Shown: piece after piece, positions 7,188 through 17,585 of the stretch
Numbering within the stretch: the stretch's first letter is position 1
How the letters are laid out: each line of letters begins with the position of its first letter
Source: Neodothiora populina
Taxonomy: Eukaryota
Assembly (NCBI RefSeq): GCF_041146345.1
Contig: NW_027191417.1
Span: forward strand, 62,001 to 126,000
Length of the DNA stretch: 64,000 nt
Direction of reading: 5' to 3'
Notes under the pieces: model-generated
What the model was told of the DNA's origin: nothing
Databases searched by the model: none
Seen by the model: the letters and a program-made list of their open reading frames with translations, nothing else
Position numbers and translations under genes: made by a program

Positions 7188-8566
7188 TTCTCAATCATCA
7201 CATGCTCTGGTGACGAGTTGGCCAAGTGGCGCACTGGACAACAGTACAAAGAGTCGAACATGGCTTGCATATGTATCTGCTCTATTGAAGTATGGATATG
7301 CAGAGGTACACACGCACTGTACGCCACCTATCATGCAAGTCACATATACACACCCCTCACACACGCAAGCAGAGCCGAAGGAAGTGTGTGTCGGCGTGTG
7401 AGATGCGTGGGGTGATCATGATGACACAAGAGCGGCTGAAGTACCTCCATGTAGATCGGGACATATCTATCACCTGTGATGTGTCAGAGACACGGCCTCG
7501 CGACGGTCGAGACTGTGGGACTTCATACTCCGTACGAGAAACGATAGAGCGAGAAAAAGACCTTTTGGCTTCGTGTCATGTGTCGCCGTATCACAGTATT
7601 GGGAATCGTCCAGGAAGAGAAGCCGCCAAGCTCCGGCGCTCTACCCGCGCGCCACTGTAATTGCCCGCTGTCGCTTGCGGGGAGACACACGGAGCTCTCT
7701 CCCGATCGGGCACTTCCAGTAATTACAGTACCTCAAGCACAGTGAGGTACTGTACTGTGCCTCATCTAGTAGTAAGGTTTAGGTACGAGAGCAAGGTACA
7801 ATAAGGTACCCACTGTAAAGATACGGACCCCTACAGTGCAAAGTGCGGCAAGGTCGATCCGCAGCGATGGAAATGGGGTAAACATCCCCCGGCTCTGCTT
7901 CCCCATTTTCGTCTCTCTTCGCACAGCTCACCTGCCAGCGAACAGTATTTGTCTCAATTTTCAAAACGCACACAACAGACACTCAGTGTACAATCCCTTC
8001 ACTGCATGGTAGCTAACATCAGGTGAGGTTCCACGGCTGGCGTTGCAAGCCTTATGACGTCTCACAGCCACCTGCACTTGTACTGGACGAACACGTTGAC
8101 GATGCAAAGGGTCGGCTTCGACTCGTGGTCAGTGGCGGTTGATCGATATACCGTTCAAACCATCTGTCGAATAGCGATCGGCTTTTGTGTCAAGGAAGTG
8201 ATTTTTCGCAAGCGACACTGTGACCGTATGCTGAAGGCTTCTTCTGTGCGCTGACCTTCCAAATCAGCCGCACGGCTGATGGCTAACCGTTGCGCTCCGT
8301 CCAGCCGTTGACTCTGTCTCTCGTCCCTTAGAAATACTGTTCTTGTCGGTAACGTCTTCTTTACTTATTTGGCTAGCATCACTAGAGAGAGATTTACAAC
8401 CGTTGGCTCTGATTATGGCGAGACAGCGTTCGAAAAGCGTATTCGCGGGTGTAGCCAGAGTGACGATCTATCTTTTATTATATTTGGCAAAGTAGCTAGC
8501 TCCCTATTGCCACGGTCAGTTCCCGTGGATTTTCTGTCTTGTCCCTTTTCTATCATAATAGCAATA

Positions 8567-10067
8567 ATGTTGGGCTGGAACAAGGGCAAGTCTGCCGTGG
8601 TGTCAAGTACGCCGTACGGGCGTGAAAGCATGGAGAAGTCGCCCAGGCTATCTACGAGCGATTCATACGTCTCCAAGCTGTCGGAGGGATCATATGAAGA
8701 CGAAGACGATGACTATGTTCCCGAGCCCGTGCCACGACTGAGGAAGAAATGGAGGAGTTCGCTTTTGGATCACAACGAGCCATACGAAAAACCTTGGCTC
8801 GAGATCAAGGAACCCAAGAAGATCTGGGAGAGAGTCATTTTCTTCTTCGGTTGTGCCTGCGGTGCGGGCTTGGGCATCTGGCTGTGTGTGTCCTCGTACA
8901 CCAAGAATGCCAATCATGCAGTATGTTTGAGTGACAACATGAACTACCATGAAATCTTACTGATAGTGCTATAGTATTGTCTGGTCATGGAGGATGACTT
9001 CAAAACTCTAGACACCAGCACTTGGAACTTTGAAATCCAGAGAGGCGGCTTCAACGAAGGGTCTTTCGAGTGGACTACGAACGACAGATCCAATGTCTTC
9101 GTGGACAAGCATGGATTGCATATCGTCCCAACACTTACAACTGAAACTACTAGCATCACCGAAAGGCAATTGAATGACGGCTATACGCTGAATCTTACTG
9201 CTACCGGAGAATGCACATCTCGAAAAGCGGAAGATTGTGCAGTCGTCAGCAACTCTTCCGCAGGATACTTGATCAACCCTGTCAGAAGTGGCCGCATCAA
9301 CACCAAGGGCCACAAGGCGATCAAGTATGGCAGAGTCGAAGTTGTCGCCAAAATGCCAAAGGGTGATTGGATCTGGCCATCAATCAGGATGATGCCTGTG
9401 GACGAAGCTTACGGAGCCTGGCCTGCTTCAGGAGAAATCGACATTGCCATGCTTCGCGGTAACGCACTTGATGCTGTCAAGGATGGCAGAGATACCATGA
9501 CCAGTACATTGCATTGGGGACCCGAGGAAGGAATGGATGCATCATTCAGAACCATTGGTGGTCACTTCTTGAAACGACGAGACTACAGCGATGGCTTCCA
9601 CACTTTTGGTCTCGAATGGGGTCCCAGTCATATTTACACCTATCTGGATGGACGACCATTGGTACGTATAGCTTTGTCGACATCTTGCGAGATAGAATTC
9701 GCTAACATACCCCTAGCAAGTGTTTTTCGTCTCGTTTCCTGAAGGATCATCAATGTGGGACCAAGGCAAATTCAGCAGCCAAGCTCGACTCTACAACGAC
9801 CCCTGGTCGTGGACAGGCAACCCCAATACTCCCTTCGACAAACCTTTCTATCTCATCCTAGATGTTGCCGTGGGAGGTACCAACGGATGGTGGGTCCAAG
9901 GTCAGGGTGAGAAGCCTTGGGACAATTCTGACCCAACGGCTGCACATGCATTCTACGAAGCGAAAGATGTCTGGTACCCAACTTGGGGCAAGGGGTCCTC
10001 CAAGGGCATGACTGTGAAAAGTGTAAAGATGTGGGAGTTGGGCAAATGCGGAAGTGCCTCGAATTAG
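8567..10067 (+). CDS. Membrane-anchored GH16 protein (laminarinase/beta-1,3-glucan-binding subgroup), 3 exons, about 463 aa
   Basis: Exons 8567-8920, 8975-9661 and 9717-10067. Cytosolic N-tail and one TM (VIFFFGCACGAGLGIWLCV). Motifs INPVRSGRINT, KYGRVEVVAKMPKGDWIWP, WPASGEIDI, FHTFGLEW, PFDKPFYLILDVAVGGTNGW. Confidence 0.93.
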
Positions 10068-11963
10068 ATCAAGTCTGTTGGTAAACATAGTCGAAGTTCA
10101 TACATCATCTCTTCTTACAAATCGCGTTCCAGAATACAAGCTGAACTCATATGCTTCTCCACTGCATGTGCTGAGAATACTCCACTCGCGATGCATGCCT
10201 AATGCATTTCTGGCAGGTTCACCTCAGCCAGGTCCATCTCGATCCCAACGTGCTGGAGAAGAAGCTGAACGTCTATCATGTCCATCTCGTGTTCCCAGGA
10301 GTGTAAGAATTGCTAGATGGTCTGCTAGTAGGTGAACAACGGTAAACTATCACCTCGCGTGTCACAGCGACTTCCCAAATAGTACCGTTTGCCTGACAAA
10401 TTATAGCATCTCGGCCGTACTAGAAAAGCAGGGCCTTCAATTACCTGCAGGCTAAGAGGAAACTCTTGACGGACTAAGGTGCACAGCTAGTACCGGTCGT
10501 TATTGCAACGGTCAAAACAGGTGAGAGTGGCGTGCTTGCCGCATTGGGTTGTAAAAAGCCGAAAAACCTTGCGAATCGCCAAAGATACTCCTATTAGGCA
10601 AGTGACCATACTGCAGACGTGCAGTAATACTGTGAGACACTCTTCTCTAATTCGCGGCAGACTGCAGATCGAGTCTTACTATCCGCAGAGTCCCATGGTA
10701 AAGTGCACATTTTATGAGCAACGGTCTGCACTTTGCAAGCCGCAGGTTGGGGTATAAATGCCGATTGGCAAAATGGAATGGATACAGCAAATCAGTTTCC
10801 CTATTATACAGATCCTCGTACTATAGCAGAGACATGACCTACAGTACTACGCTTGACATGGTCATGTGTGCATTTATTACATCATGAAGACCCGTCCTGC
10901 CAGAGAGGAATTATCAGATGTGTAAATGGTGGTACGCGATGTTTGTCCGGATCCGAACAACATGCGGCGGCCTTGAATTAGTGCAAACATGCCTCACCTA
11001 AGTAACTCCGTCCTCGTCACGTGTCTAGAGATCTCAAGTCAGGCGAACTGTATCGCATGAACTTTACTTTACAATATACTCACAGCTCGGATTTTATACA
11101 CACCTGTTCTATCCAATAAGTCCATAAGAAAAGACATAATATACGCGATGTACGAGATGCGGGCGGACGTGCCCGCCGCTAGACCATATCTAGACAACCT
11201 ACTGGAGGCAGGATAAAACCTCACCGTTCGCTAGGTGAAACATTGTATTGGACGGCTCTTCACTTCCTAGAGACCTTTCTCGAATTCTCTACACGTGGAA
11301 GCGATTTCTTGCACATGCTGCACCAGCCGCATGGCTATGCCGGTTGTTTCACGAAAGCCACGGCAACCGACTGTCAAAGTGGCTGCCGGGCCACAACGTC
11401 TTTTAGTCAAGCCCTCCGTAACCGCCTCCGCGGCGGATACTGCCTTGCACTAGATCTAGCTGGCCATGGATTGAGAATTCTTTCCGAAACTGATCGTCCT
11501 ATGGTGCAGATCTGGCTACCACTGTCGCGGTGGAAGGGCTGGACCATGACAAAAAGCAGTATCTGGCGTTAGTGGAGAAAAAAGAAACCAACGAGCAAAT
11601 GGTCCTCGTGTCGACTGATTGATCTAGCAGTCCGTTTAGAGTTATGCTGTGAATTGGCTCGGCGAATGGAGGAACGCCATGTGAGGTTACGCCTTCCACC
11701 TACGTCCATGGCAACAAAAGTCTTCTAGCCCGGTCAAGCCCAATCCGTCCCCGGCATACATTATACTTCTCCGCAACAGTTAAGGGCCGTTGGCGCTCGA
11801 CTTGTCTCGTCTGAATAGTAAGGTATCTATCAGTAGACTATGAAGGAACTCTTGCCACTAGGCTGCTGGGAGCATTCCCATAAATGTATAGAGTCAGTCT
11901 CCCCCTCCCATGGCTGTCCTTCTCAAGTAATCATCTGGTCTGAAAAGAGCGGAACCAACGATC

Positions 11964-14900
11964 ATGTCGCCCAACAACAGTATTCTTCCCATAGTGGAAT
12001 GTACTATGCCTTCCGATGAGGCTGTGAATGTAGTGCCGAGCTATCCTTCGACAGAGGACGGTCACTCCTCTTCTGTCGTGTCCGTGTCGCAGCCCGTATA
12101 TCAGGAGTCGAAAGGGGTTGCAGATCTGCGGCGATGCGATGTGGTTCGTGATGCAAACGGTCTTCTTGATTACACATTGCTGACTGTGGGGTCCCAGATG
12201 GCCGAATTCTTGCATGCAAGAGCGCAGCGAAATAACTGGCTCGAGAGCTATCACAACGACCTGTTCTATGGCACATCCAACCTTGGAGCCTTTGTGCGTC
12301 GTCCAGATGGCTCCTACTCAACGACATCGCAGGCCGGTGGTCAGATCATGGAAGCTTTGGAGGCTTTGCAGCCACAGATGGCATTCACCATGTCCTTCAC
12401 TGCAATTAGTGTTCTGTTGACTACCCTGGAGGAAGGTCAACGCGTGCTTGAACTGCAGCAGGGCTTCCTGTTGCCTATCCTCGACTCCATTGTCGAGTTC
12501 AGCAGGATCGCCCCAGCTTGTGAAAAGTATATTGGTGCTTGTATCTGCAAACAAGAGCATTTCATTCTTGTTTGGGGCGCAGACCCGAACTCTGTTCTGA
12601 TGAGAGCCGGCGATATGGAGTCTTTGCTTGTTGGAAAGGTGAGACCACTTCTAGGGACATGCCTCTTCGCAGTGCTGACATGTCCAGATCTTCGGTGTTC
12701 CCGTACCACCCATGGATCTTAGCATGCTCGGCCCTTACTCGACAACAATTTCCCGTAGCGCTTCCTCTGCTGGCCAGAAAAGCCCCAGCAGGAAATCAAG
12801 GCCCTCCACCTCAAGACCCACCACCCCAAGAAGTCGCCATTCATCCGCATCCAGAAGTCATCGATCATCATCACGAAAAGCAATCCCGAGGTCTGTGTCC
12901 TTCGGTCAGCCCTTTGATGTTCGAGATGATCCTATGGAGTCGCTGCATATGCCTGTTCCACCATTGCCAGTCTTTTTCCAAACTGAAGCTGGCGAAGCTT
13001 CGTCTTCAATGAACCGAGGCCGGATCATGAGTGCTTCTACTGACGTCGACCCACTTGCCGACCGCATTTCTTCACCAATGAACAGAGGTCGGTTCATGAG
13101 TAATTCTACTGACGTCGACCCACTTGCACCACGGAATCCCACTCGCACCAAGAGTATGCCTCCTGAGATGGTAAGAAGGCCGACTATTGGTTATATCCAG
13201 TCCCTGCAACTCGCCGAAACCGCAAAGGCCCCTCAGCAATTCCCTAGACTTTCGCTGTGGGATCATCGGGTACTCCAAAATGCAGGCATTTCCGTTGGCC
13301 CAGATGGTAAACTAGACGGCGTCATCTCCCACGCTACCCTCAAGAAGATGGGCGTGCTCGAGAAAGCTCTCGAGGTCGAGGAGATGGGTGAGACCAGCAT
13401 CAAGGAGGAAAATGTCATCGTTCCCGATGAAGAGATGCAAAAGAATCAGAAGAGGCCGTTCTTGCTCTCCCACTCGTGGCTTGTCGCAATCGCTGCTGGA
13501 CTGGTGGTTACGCTGGAGTTCTGGACCATTGCTGATTTGATCGGCGGAACTCGCCTCGATGGTGACTGGGCTCGCTGGGCATTGGTAAGTGTTAAGCGAC
13601 CACTGAAGAAGAAAGCTTTACTAACTGCATAACCCAGGTCATCACCATCCCCATGTTCTCACTCTTCAGTTTGTTCTTCATGATTGTTATTTCCGGCTGT
13701 CTTTTCCAGCTGGTTGTACCTGTTGGATGTCTGAAGAAAAACAGCGTCTACTATTCAGCGATAGCTCCCAAGATCTCCGAGCATCCCAATCTCGAACTTC
13801 CCCACATCACGATCCAAATGCCCGTCTACAAGGAAGGCCTGAGTGGTGTCATCATTCCCACCGTCACCAGTCTACTCCAAGCCGTCAGACACTACGAAAG
13901 TTATGGCGGTACTGCTACCATTTACATCAACGATGACGGCATGCAACTGGTCGGCCCCGAACTCCAAGAAGCGCGCAAGACTTTCTACGAACTCAATGAC
14001 ATCGCTTGGTGTTCGCGTCCAGCCCAGTGCACCGAGCCTGGTGAGAAGTTCTTCCTTCGTAAGGGAAAATTCAAGAAGGCTTCGAACATGAACTTCTGCT
14101 TGGATTTCTCTCTCCGTGTCGAGGCCGAATTCATTCGCATGAGAGACGCGCAGTGTGCAGAGGAAGGCATCAGCCACCTTCTGATGCCGCTTGAAGAGGA
14201 AGACGACGTTTACGAGCGTGCAAGAGATCGTGTCATCGAACAGGAGGGCGGCAGAGCACTTAGCGGTGGTGATGTTCGCATCGGAGAGTTTATTCTCATC
14301 ATCGATTCCGACACCATCGTTCCCGAAGACTGCCTGATCTGTGGAGCACTCGAGCTAACCGAGTCACCCGAGGTTGCCATCATCCAGCACGCATCCGGAG
14401 TCATGAACGTCACTGGCAGTCTTTTCGAGAATGGTATCACCTACTTCACCAACCTCATCTACACCAACATTGTCCACTCCGTTGGCAGTGGTGATGTCGG
14501 TCCTTTCGTCGGTCACAACGCCTTCCTTCGCTGGAAAGCCATTCAATCTGTTTCGTACCAAGAGGAAGGCCAAACCAAGTTTTGGTCGGAGTCTCACGTC
14601 TCCGAGGACTTTGATGTCAGTCTGCGTCTGCAGATGGCTGGTTTCATCATTCGTCTCGCAGGTTACCACAAGGGTGGTTTCAAGGAGGGTGTGTCTTTGA
14701 CGGTATACGATGAGCTTGCTCGATGGGAAAAGTACGCCTACGGATGCAACGAGCTTGTCTTCCACCCCTTCAAAGATTGGTGGCGACACGGACCCATTAC
14801 ACCGCTCTTCAGACGATTCCTTGGGAGCAACATCAAGATCACCTCTAAATTCACCATCATGGCTTACATTGGTACCTACTACGCCATCGCCGCCGGACTG

Positions 14901-15416
14901 CCTCTCTCCATTATCAACTATGTACTCCTCGGCCTTGGTTGGCAACTCGACAAGTTCTACCAGAGCAGTTGGCACATTTGGGTCGGTCTCGCAGTCATCT
15001 ACAACGTCGTCTCGCCATTCTCTTTCGCTATGCTCCGTTACCGCACGAAGCAAAAGAGCTACCTCGGAGCACTCTTCGAGTGCGCCAAGTGGCTTCCTCT
15101 GTTTCTGGTCTTCTTCTCCGGTCTGTCGTTCCATTTGTCCAAGGCTCTGTTATGTCATTTCTTCAGCGTCAATATGGAGTGGACCACAACGGCCAAGGAA
15201 GTCGAGAAGACTGGTTTCAGACTCAGCATCATCAGGGTCATCAAGGACTTCAGGTACATGTACATCTTCAACCTCTTCATCGCCGGCGCGATGATCTTCT
15301 TTGCTTTCTGTCCCTTTCCCGCCTGGAGGATCATTGACTTCACCGTTATCATCCCGCTTGTCAACCAGGTCGCTGGACATTTGTTACTTCCTTTCTTTGC
15401 TCTGGGACTCTTATAG
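11964..15416 (+). CDS. Polytopic glycosyltransferase family 2 protein (processive synthase-like), 3 exons, about 1116 aa
   Basis: Exons 11964-12638, 12688-13584 and 13638-15416 join in frame. Two TMs precede the catalytic domain: QMPVYKE, INDDG, KKASNMN, IDSDT, GHNAFLRW, SEDF, ELARWEKYAYG. About 5 C-terminal TMs follow. The start could instead be ATG 12006. Confidence 0.92.
13003..13128 (+). repeat. 69-bp (23-aa) internal tandem duplication in the GT2 linker
   Basis: SSMNRGRIMSASTDVDPLA / SPMNRGRFMSNSTDVDPLA; ATGs at 13009 and 13078; shared core ttctactgacgtcgacccacttgc. Confidence 0.9.
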
Positions 15417-15725
15417 ATTCTGTCCCTCATATTTCTCATAGACTATTCTGTTTCTTTTTATTTCTTTTGTCTTCTCATCACAAAACTACTACTCGATACA
15501 ATAGATAATATCCCATATATTTTGCTGGCCAAAAAAACAAAGAAACATGCCACATAACTCCCGTCTCACTCTCTTCTCTCTCACTTCTATCCCTTCCTAT
15601 CCACATAGGATTCATCTCGCGTGATCGTGAGAAAGCCCAAACCTCGGTTACGGTACGCCTCTGCCGGGACCTGCATTTGCGGTTGAAAAGGTAATACAGC
15701 CGTTTCATCTAGCCCGAAGCTCTAA

Positions 15726-15767
15726 ACGGAAGTACTGTACGGAAGTACTGTACGGAAGTACTGTACG
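15726..15767. repeat. Perfect 13-bp tandem repeat (ACGGAAGTACTGT) x3
   Basis: acggaagtactgt at 15726, 15739 and 15752, followed by acg. Confidence 0.95.
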
Positions 15768-16053
15768 AGCGTAAAAGTACCTATAGTATTTACTAATACA
15801 AGAGTGCCTCAGGTAGAGTACAGTACCTTGACTCGACCTTTGTGGCAAAAGACGGACGGCCGGGCCATGATTCTCGTGCGGGTGCCGATGACTCGGATCC
15901 AGCTCCTTCTCGCCCCCACGTTGTAGCAGGAGTCTACCTGTGATGTGCCTTTACCAATGGTAAGTGAAACGGGGCTAACGCGAGTCTATTGACTGAGCCG
16001 CAAGCCAGCAGCTACCAGCTGACGACCAAGAAAGAGAAGAAAAGAAAAACGAG

Positions 16054-16200
16054 GCCCCGTTGGCTTAGCTGGTAAACTTACTAGTCTTTAAGGTAGTCTT
16101 CTTGGAGTCTTCTTGGAGTCTAAGTGAGGATTGATGGGCGAGAAGCACGAAATCTGACTATCGATGATTTCAGCATGTTTTAGAACGAAACGCCGGGGTT
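16054..16200 (+). pseudogene. Degenerate tRNA-Leu(TAA)-like sequence with an intron of about 62 nt
   Basis: Acceptor GCCCCG/CGGGGT; A-box TGGCTTAGCTGG; anticodon stem TAGTC/GACTA with TT-TAA-G; long variable region; stem TGTTT/AAACG around a 7-nt loop; trailing T-run. The D-stem and B-box are non-canonical. Confidence 0.35.
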
Positions 16201-16538
16201 TTTGCCGCTTTCGTTATGGTGCATGCGCCGCGAAAGGGAAGTAACAATTGTCATTGTCGTCACTGCCTTACTGATACGCCACAGATTTCTTCGAGGTCTG
16301 GACTTGAATTTGTGTCTCATGTTTACCTTTGTTGATCACGGGTTGCACGAGTAATGCCAAAGAGCAAAAGAAAGCAACCTCAAATTATTAACTAGGTTTT
16401 TTTGTCTATGTAATTGTGCTGCTCTATTATCGAGGCAAATGTTACGGCATAAACTTGTAATGTAAGTTTCGAGAGTGAAAGGGTATAAGAAAATAAGAAA
16501 ATGTGAAAGGCCGAGAAAGGTACATGGTAGCCTCTTCT

Positions 16539-17585
16539 CTAGAGGAAGCTGGTCATCGCCATGGACATAGCCACGACAATTCCCCAGCCTGCGAACTTGG
16601 CGAAGTTGATAGGTGATCCGCTGGCGGCGGCGCCCGCCGTGCTGTGGCCGAGATACCAGCTTCCGATGCTCGTCAGTTTGCCCTTGGGGTTCAAGAAAGC
16701 CGCGTTGGGTCCGACGTTGGAAATGTCCGATCTGAAAGCTCCAAAATACGAGTAACGACCGACGAAATCCTGTTCGTCGAGCCACGATGTGCTGTCGTTG
16801 AAGAAAGCCTGGGAATCGAATTGCGAGCAGTTCGCGCAGGCAAATTCCGTGACCCAGATATCGGAGACGTTGGCGTAGGTGCTGTTGACTTGGCTGACGT
16901 GGCTCGAAAGTCCTTCGAAGTTTCCGTACTGAATCCGGGTTAGTATAGAAGAATCAATCCTCAGGACGCATATTGTGGATACTCACCCAATGAACGGGAA
17001 TGAAATCGACCTCGCAAGAAGTGTTGCCAGAAATGGCAGAGCATGCCGTGAAGAAGTCCTGTAACCATTGGTGTCCGCTGGGGCCACCGGTGACTGCTGG
17101 TGCTCCAAGCAGCACGCCATAGTCTCTCTTGAGCGGCTCGAACTGTCGCTTCCATACGGTCGCAGCATCTTGCGGTGATACTCCTGAGCCGCCGGACTCG
17201 GTTGCGTCAGGCTCGTTGAAACCTGAGTGTATATGTAAGTAATGGCATGGATAATCCATAGTCAGAGTAACAGACCTAGCACGTGCGTAATGTTCATGTG
17301 GTCAGTGATCAGGTTCTTGACGGCGTCGTAGAACGACCTATCGTTTTCTGGATCCGCGGGACCTCCCCATAGCTGGGGCACAAACTCGAGTTGTGAAGCG
17401 ATGTATACAGTAGTCGGGAAGGCCTGGTAGTTGTAGTACCATGTGAGGTCGCTGCCCTCGCCGCTCCATATCTTGTCGTCCTTGGAATTGTCCGACGAAG
17501 ATACATAGACGAGTCCCCGCTTGTCAGACGTAGATGCTGAAGCAACAGCCGCAAAAGCAAGCGATGTTAATGCGAGACCCAACAT
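16539..17585 (-). CDS. Secreted, probably GPI-anchored GH128 beta-1,3-glucanase (Asl1-like), 3 exons, about 311 aa
   Basis: Exons 17585-17276, 17222-16987 and 16928-16539. Signal peptide MLGLALTSLAFAAVASA. Motifs KRGL, WYYNY, EFVPQLWG, LGFNEPD (acid/base), VHWY, IWVTEFA (nucleophile), RYSYFG. Hydrophobic C-terminus GWGIVVAMSMAMTSFL. Confidence 0.93.

Follow-up and report, generated by a model that had tools for sequence, protein, structure and literature searches.

Three consecutive genes for carbohydrate-active enzymes in the genome of the fungus Neodothiora populina raise the question of whether they form a single system for the synthesis of a surface glucan. They lie in a 64,000-nucleotide stretch (NCBI RefSeq assembly GCF_041146345.1, contig NW_027191417.1, positions 62,001 to 126,000 of the forward strand), here called the window, and encode a membrane-bound glycoside hydrolase of family GH16, a polytopic glycosyltransferase of family GT2 and a glycoside hydrolase of family GH128. 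The initial annotation had tentatively read all three as one cluster making a glucan independently of Fks (GT48), with GH16 as the membrane partner of the synthase and GH128 trimming or releasing its chains. Comparison with other genomes showed that the conserved unit is the GT2-GH16 pair and not the trio: the association of a membrane GH16 with an uncharacterised GT2 stood up, whereas GH128 as a conserved part did not.

Linkage of the three genes in other genomes

Conservation of the neighbourhood was assessed in a metagenome scan that gave 370 confirmed stretches, of which the best 80 were kept and grouped into 60 clusters at 95% identity. For GH16, the informative clusters were the 21 that extend 4 kb or more upstream of the GT2 gene, leaving out 39 shorter ones. 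A GH16 gene was found beside the GT2 in 16 of these 21, and one shorter locus contained part of a GH16. The two genes are divergent in 15 of the resulting 17 linked clusters and in tandem in the other two (L052 and L030), which have the same layout as the window. No GH128 was found near the GT2 in any of the 22 clusters that extend 4 kb or more downstream, nor in any of the 80 loci overall; as far as tested, GH128 is a local neighbour, a paralogue standing beside the pair in this lineage only.

The linkage was also found in named ascomycetes. The GT2 and GH16 locus tags are adjacent in five genomes (Cladophialophora, Exophiala, Cryoendolithus, Neoarthrinium and Cudoniella), accessions are one or two apart in all six pre-selected Dothideomycete pairs, and tags are one to three genes apart in eight Sclerotiniaceae records; the genes of one Talaromyces marneffei pair are not adjacent. 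Accession gaps of two had hinted that a small conserved gene might separate GH16 from GT2, and none was found at 33 loci.

The third gene that recurs in relatives is a WSC-repeat copper radical oxidase (AA5), which the initial annotation had missed. Its oxidase domain was detected in six GH16-linked clusters and its WSC part in a seventh, and in L018 it is the gene located between GH16 and GT2. WSC domains bind beta-glucan, and one gene model of Cudoniella has GH16 and five WSC repeats in a single protein. A WSC-AA5 search of the N. populina genome returned WSC repeats only, with no match to the oxidase domain. A search of the same genome for the glyoxal oxidase family also came back empty, but so did its controls, and this negative carries no weight.

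The three genes of the window (Table 1) are intact, with open frames, no internal stops and GT-AG introns, and their Pfam families agree with the first reading (PF00722 for GH16; PF25550, the DUF7928 domain, plus PF13632 for GT2; PF11790 for GH128). Gaps of 1.9 kb (GH16 to GT2) and 1.1 kb (GT2 to GH128) separate them. The GH16 and GH128 models correspond to database proteins P0121 (Neodothiora populina AAFC00_004445) and P0241 (AAFC00_004447), each with 100% identity over the query exon and equal length, and these two locus tags are two apart. No further carbohydrate-active genes were found among the scanned genes of the window, which include a thiolase, MFS and ABC transporters, a peroxidase, an esterase and a RasGEF. 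Short contigs from one sequencing run, over 9 of 30 bins, showed no joints or differences and inform neither splicing nor the methionine codon of the GH16 described below. Between the convergent GT2 and GH128 genes, positions 15722-15768 hold a short head-to-tail repeat with about three copies of a 14-base unit.

The GH128 protein contains both catalytic glutamates (in NEP106 and TEF209), matches PF11790 with an E-value of 8e-73 and has PDB matches such as 6uay. Its N- and C-termini are hydrophobic and, on hydropathy only, could be a signal peptide and a glycosylphosphatidylinositol (GPI) signal. Its first intron (17223-17275) has the unusual donor GTCTGT, and the length of the database protein equals that of the model using this donor. 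About seven GH128 loci were found in the N. populina genome, and the window copy shares 60% identity with a paralogue on C3. A gene model of Talaromyces atroroseus (P0220) combines a GH128 with a GH16 of this group, either as a true fusion or as merged neighbours; this GH16 groups with a GT2-linked one and its catalytic site is intact.

Table 1. Features of the GH16-GT2-GH128 locus and of the related WSC-AA5 genes (positions of the window unless a locus is named)
Feature	Position	Strand	Remarks
GH16 gene	8567..10067	+	exons 8567-8920, 8975-9661, 9717-10067; 463 aa; type II membrane, laminarinase/GNBP-like, probably GH16_4
GT2 gene	11964..15416	+	exons 11964-12638, 12688-13584, 13638-15416; 1116 aa; polytopic synthase
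GH128 gene	16539..17585	-	exons 17585-17276, 17222-16987, 16928-16539; 311 aa
GH16 juxtamembrane cytosolic motif (aa 58-78) and membrane helix (aa 90-108)	8738..8890	+	part predicted to dock on GT2
GH16 cleft Trp to Arg256	9386-9388	+	conserved Trp replaced
GH16 catalytic motif E-I-D-I-A-M	9434..9451	+	nucleophile Glu272 kept; acid/base Glu replaced by Met277
DUF7928 domain of GT2	12198..12638	+	PF25550
Low-complexity insertion in GT2 linker	12688..13275	+	about 200 aa; unmatched in five homologues tested
GT2 motif NDD (NDD622)	13929	+	spliced translation
GT2 motif KKASNMN (KKASNMN670)	14073	+	spliced translation
GT2 motif DSD (DSD747)	14304	+	spliced translation
GT2 motif SED (SED846)	14601	+	spliced translation
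GT2 motif ELARW (ELARW883)	14712	+	spliced translation
Crz1-like site upstream of GH16	8063..8071	+	lead only
Two enriched promoter words upstream of GT2, one Crz1-like	11357..11385		lead only
WSC-AA5 gene in relatives	L015:3-2525; L018:3751-7276; L046:46-2939; others		beside GT2-GH16 pair

The GT2 synthase and its family

The GT2 has seven hydrophobic segments and carries the D, DxD and catalytic xED motifs of processive membrane GT2s, which are conserved across its family; every motif quoted for it beforehand was recovered in the spliced protein. The QxxRW motif of cellulose synthases and RiGT2-type enzymes was not found in the window copy, which reads ELARW, and occurs anywhere in only two of 267 family sequences. 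Within the low-complexity insertion, a unit of about 20 residues is present in duplicate (positions 13000-13130).

The Aulographum orthologue was modelled with AlphaFold2 (predicted local distance difference test, pLDDT, 89.6), and the model had BcsA as its best structural match (Z 22.8, root-mean-square deviation, rmsd, 3.6, 390 residues aligned), followed by plant CesA (19.0), Fks1 (16.7) and Cgs (16.5). The GT2 is thus predicted to be an uncharacterised synthase of processive type with a BcsA fold, in agreement with its earlier description as cellulose-synthase-style. The modelled fold would fit a beta-1,3, a mixed-linkage or another glucan as product, since the highest template modelling score (TM-score) in Foldseek was with Cgs and the best NCBIfam matches were weak ones to OpgH (E about 1e-7 to 1e-11), far below the cut-off. 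The NCBIfam CelA and OpgH equivalogs gave at most 43 bits against cut-offs of 328-1131, with the intronless paralogue on C3 and two full-length homologues included, and a PDB sequence search with the GT2 exon or profile gave nothing meaningful. The window GT2 has no PF02364 (Fks/GT48) match; the only one in the N. populina genome is on C17, consistent with the claim that the system is separate from the canonical Fks.

The family is large, with at least 3501 relatives among 8000 candidates scored and 615 representatives in a profile search at E up to 1e-30. Among the best 120 matches, the named entries come from ascomycetes and carry no specific functional annotation. Six of ten representatives looked up carry names, namely from Metarhizium, Papiliotrema, Kwoniella, Exobasidium, Pseudozyma and the stramenopile Phaeothamnion, and the look-alike clusters in the Atlas take in Basidiomycota and diatoms. 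The database protein P0001, from another sample, is 88% identical to the window GT2. Six loci from a viral collection (L099-L104) hold a GT2, which in five of them is about 30% identical over most of the core. The GT2s of these contigs, three of which are labelled GVMAG, belong to the ExxRW family, have about 670-690 residues and lack DUF7928; in the two loci inspected no GH16 neighbour was seen. The single find in prokaryotic genomes is distant, a Lachnospiraceae GT2 (L091:5749-9594) fused to a Ser/Thr kinase and DUF5050, which adjoins a glycogen-debranching-like gene and has no glucanase neighbour.

The N-terminal DUF7928 domain is predicted to have the class II aldolase/adducin-head fold, an assignment new from the analysis of the window and missed in the initial annotation. 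The domain of a metagenome homologue, folded alone (pLDDT 90.7), matched a class II aldolase with Z 12.3 (rmsd 2.6, 140 of 155 residues aligned), and the 15 of 48161 chains with Z of at least 8 were apparently class II aldolase-like throughout. Foldseek gave nothing at E up to 0.001, its top rows being the same aldolases, and the ESM Atlas gave no usable match. The metal-binding histidines of class II aldolases were not recognised, as no DUF7928 column exceeds 31% histidine in 36 sequences. Because the predicted fold comes without these conserved histidines, we infer that the domain could be non-catalytic, with a regulatory or oligomerising role.

Comparison with known enzymes placed the GT2 nearest in structure to BcsA, with the D, DxD, ED and RW motifs in the same order. 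BcsA also works with a single-pass partner (BcsB) and a linked glucanase (BcsZ), whereas in the GT2-GH16 pair the partner is itself the glucanase. Identity to BcsA is only 13-16%, and the window GT2 differs in having ExxRW instead of QxxRW, and DUF7928 with no PilZ domain match. OpgH/MdoH, Cgs and NdvB share the Pfam group PF13632 and weak profile matches; their scores are far below the curated cut-offs and their domain layout is different. In Cgs and NdvB, synthesis is coupled to a glycoside hydrolase domain. Among fungal non-chitin GT2s, Tft1 of A. fumigatus and CelA of A. nidulans are found in the same four ascomycete classes (bioRxiv 10.64898/2026.09.17.752320, in part). Judging by motif and domain differences, they are probably a lineage separate from the window GT2 family, and a GH16 partner has no occurrence in the portion of that preprint available. 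According to the accessible part of PMC9500679, Cps1/CpsA is another fungal GT2 without an assigned product.

The membrane GH16 and its predicted docking on the synthase

The type II topology claimed for the GH16 agrees with its one hydrophobic helix. Among 118 GH16 matches, 106 have an internal membrane helix and 94 have the cytosolic motif ahead of it. The best PDB matches are laminarinases and beta-1,3(4)-glucanases, and the WPA...WPX pattern and GNBP-type names fit GH16_3/GH16_4. Five proteins of the group gave no SKN1/KRE6 Pfam match at E up to 1, a family that we take to be the marker of Kre6/Skn1/Ghs2 (GH16_2). The group of the partner is described as a beta-1,3-glucanase group in the sections of PMC6827312 available.

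An active GH16 endo-beta-1,3-glucanase has both glutamates of the EXDXXE motif, and the window copy has methionine (codon ATG at 9449) at the second, acid/base position, a loss that the initial annotation did not report. This glutamate is kept in 118 of 120 GH16 matches, and one other match has glutamine. Glutamine is found at this position in the Myriangium orthologue P0159, an apparent second loss near the branch of the window copy. A single sequencing error is unlikely, since ATG differs from a glutamate codon at no fewer than two bases. The window GH16 also deviates at 7 of 103 conserved columns (median of the matches, 1) and has the longest end branch of its tree (0.62; median, 0.17). From its sequence, it is probably catalytically impaired. 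About 9% of GH16_4 members lack catalytic residues or are non-catalytic, as given in part of PMC6827312, and the loss is therefore unusual among the orthologues and not in the subfamily.

Quick trees of GT2 and GH16, with support from the Shimodaira-Hasegawa-like approximate likelihood ratio test (SH-aLRT) only, showed the same groupings, and the distances of 27 linked pairs were correlated (Mantel rho 0.90; none of 5000 permutations as high). N. populina (G000) also has a second, unlinked set, with an intact type II GH16 at C7:693996-694580 and GT2s at C3:503394-505124 and C4:1099592-1101332; the C4 copy was matched in two frames without ExxRW in the motif scan, by an intron, a frameshift or divergence. 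The unlinked GH16 and both GT2s all have their best matches in the linked pairs L030 and L073, as if cognate partners had been preserved after separation of their genes.

A model of the complex, which the initial annotation had suggested, was built from residues 34-903 of the Aulographum GT2 and 36-112 of its GH16, and predicted docking of the two orthologues. Over three runs the pair had an ipSAE score of 0.74, whereas none of the three controls exceeded 0.00; contact agreement was at least 91% and partner pLDDT at least 70. Among solved pairs, 51 of 78 microbial and 39 of 65 eukaryotic ones reach the ipSAE mark, compared with 2 of 108 microbial and 2 of 126 eukaryotic pairs that were mismatched. 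The model places the GH16 motif against the cytosolic GT domain and the membrane helix against the first membrane helix of the GT2, a layout that fits the type II topology. At the corresponding positions of the window proteins, 27 of 39 GH16 and 40 of 51 GT2 interface residues are identical or similar.

Several observations weigh against the partnership. Five of the 21 informative clusters have no GH16 neighbour, nor does either of the other N. populina GT2 paralogues; together with the two paralogues and two linked loci, these five make up a separate GT2 clade. The near-identity of some clusters (L015 and L019, L032 and L036) means that the linkage counts overstate independence, and mirrored trees are expected from linkage alone, because linked genes mirror each other without binding. 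Among blind neighbours, 7 of 44 likewise passed the complex mark. The folding used orthologous proteins and a partner of 77 residues, and peptides and predicted chains lie outside the calibration. The GT2 interface is no better kept than its background (32 of 51 identical versus 67%). Against these stand the conserved linkage, the mirrored trees and the predicted complex, all in favour of the GH16 as membrane partner, and we consider a functional GT2-GH16 partnership probable.

Possible function and significance of the pair

A similar arrangement is described for S. pombe in the available part of PMC13612389, where the single-pass GH16 protein Ghs2 sits on the polytopic glucan synthase Bgs3 through its cytosolic N-terminus and membrane helix. 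Ghs2 has the same EXDXXE motif, with a second glutamate dispensable for complex formation: the mutation E419A of the equivalent residue kept the complex and abolished activity and function. The S. pombe synthase is of the GT48 (Fks) type and its GH16 Kre6-like, whereas here a BcsA-fold GT2 is paired with a laminarinase/GNBP-type GH16; binding is demonstrated there and predicted here, where the genes are physically linked across many fungi. By analogy, the pair may be a synthase-remodeller module on an uncharacterised GT2 family, a variant of the Bgs3-Ghs2 type.

The GT2 and its single-pass GH16 could thus be an old two-protein module of filamentous fungi. On the modelled fold, the GT2 would polymerise a uridine diphosphate (UDP) sugar, most likely UDP-glucose, on the cytosolic side and pass the chain through its own membrane channel. 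The GH16 would be held on the synthase by its basic/aromatic cytosolic motif and membrane helix, with the beta-1,3-glucanase domain outside, where the new chain may be cut, released or re-linked. Because of the family of the GH16 partner and the WSC domains of the usual third gene, the product would most likely be a beta-1,3-containing glucan made without Fks. The mixed-linkage synthase Tft1/CelA, as presented in part of bioRxiv 10.64898/2026.09.17.752320, shows that a fungal GT2 can make such a glucan. In the window, where the acid/base glutamate is lost and the docking parts are kept, the GH16 would probably act as a stabilising or glucan-binding subunit. The complete reading (module, beta-1,3-containing product, adaptor-like GH16 here and GH128 as a bystander paralogue) is the one that we hold, with moderate confidence.

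The upstream regions may give a hint about regulation. In 17 upstream or intergenic stretches from related species, the word G[AT]GGCTG, picked after a k-mer screen, occurred 1.17 times per kb against 0.37-0.43 in two backgrounds and was present in 15 stretches; GAGGCTG is a reported yeast Crz1 site (PMC2873923, in part). Neither Rlm1 sites nor the Magnaporthe Crz1 word (fold 1.1) were enriched in these stretches, and Crz1-type regulation of the pair would be a lead only.

GH128 could have been recruited in this lineage to take over the hydrolytic step from the impaired GH16, making a true three-gene unit. The locus with the impaired GH16 is indeed the only one seen with a GH128, whose own glutamates are intact, and the Talaromyces atroroseus model joins these two families; yet the GH16 in that model is intact too, the clusters without GH128 include L052, the closest relative tested, chance adjacency is plausible in a genome with about seven GH128 loci, and GH128 lacks a counterpart of the membrane helix predicted to dock on the synthase. 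We regard such a unit as unlikely. Somewhat more room must be left for a real pair with another product, such as a beta-1,6-glucan, a polymer of sugars other than glucose, or a beta-glucan that is short or cyclic like those of OpgH, Cgs or NdvB, although we do not favour it. The OpgH profile matches and the Cgs TM-score point in that direction, and the rarity of QxxRW implies an acceptor site different from that of cellulose-type enzymes; by structural Z the GT2 model is nevertheless closer to BcsA than to Cgs, and its partner belongs to a beta-1,3-glucanase group, a specificity of little use on beta-1,2-glucan.

The window copy might instead be a decaying duplicate under relaxed selection, with the GT2s on C3 and C4 and the GH16 on C7 doing the work. 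The long branch and deviating columns of its GH16, the long insertion in its GT2 and the missing oxidase-domain match would fit this, but frames and introns are intact, the catalytic motifs of the GT2 and the docking motif of the GH16 are all kept, and non-catalytic members are not rare in GH16_4. In addition, the GT2 is no further from the main clade than that of L052 (62.6% versus 63.0%) and has the close relative P0001 in another sample, so that decay seems quite improbable. Equally doubtful is that GT2 and GH16 are neighbours that merely share a divergent promoter and are regulated together, without being physical partners. The prevalence of the divergent layout and the Crz1-like word in intergenic DNA speak for it; the linkage nevertheless persists in the tandem layouts, the unlinked N. 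populina paralogues still match by clade, and the complex model passes its mark.

A wider proposal, beyond the GT2-GH16 module preferred here, can be put forward only tentatively. The ExxRW GT2s of ascomycetes, basidiomycetes, stramenopiles and giant-virus contigs may be an unrecognised class of glucan synthases. With a docked GH16, and often a WSC-AA5 oxidase, they might make a stress-induced extracellular beta-glucan (for example, a glucan of the hyphal sheath or the matrix that is at present attributed to Fks) under the control of an aldolase-fold sensor. In the window, the GH16 would then be a pure adaptor and GH128 would cut.

The full-text literature searched, with subscription papers mostly outside it, described neither the GT2-GH16 pair nor any product of this GT2 family. 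To our knowledge, no fungal beta-1,3-glucan synthase other than Fks is established, and we know of several fungal wall and matrix glucans without an assigned enzyme. The pair hints at a second, unstudied route to surface glucan, and the window GH16 is a natural variant of the partner without the acid/base residue. If the product does contain beta-1,3 linkages, the principle of coupling a synthase to a remodeller, which was demonstrated in 2026 for GT48-Kre6 proteins, would have arisen twice in fungi, from unrelated synthases and with different GH16 subfamilies.

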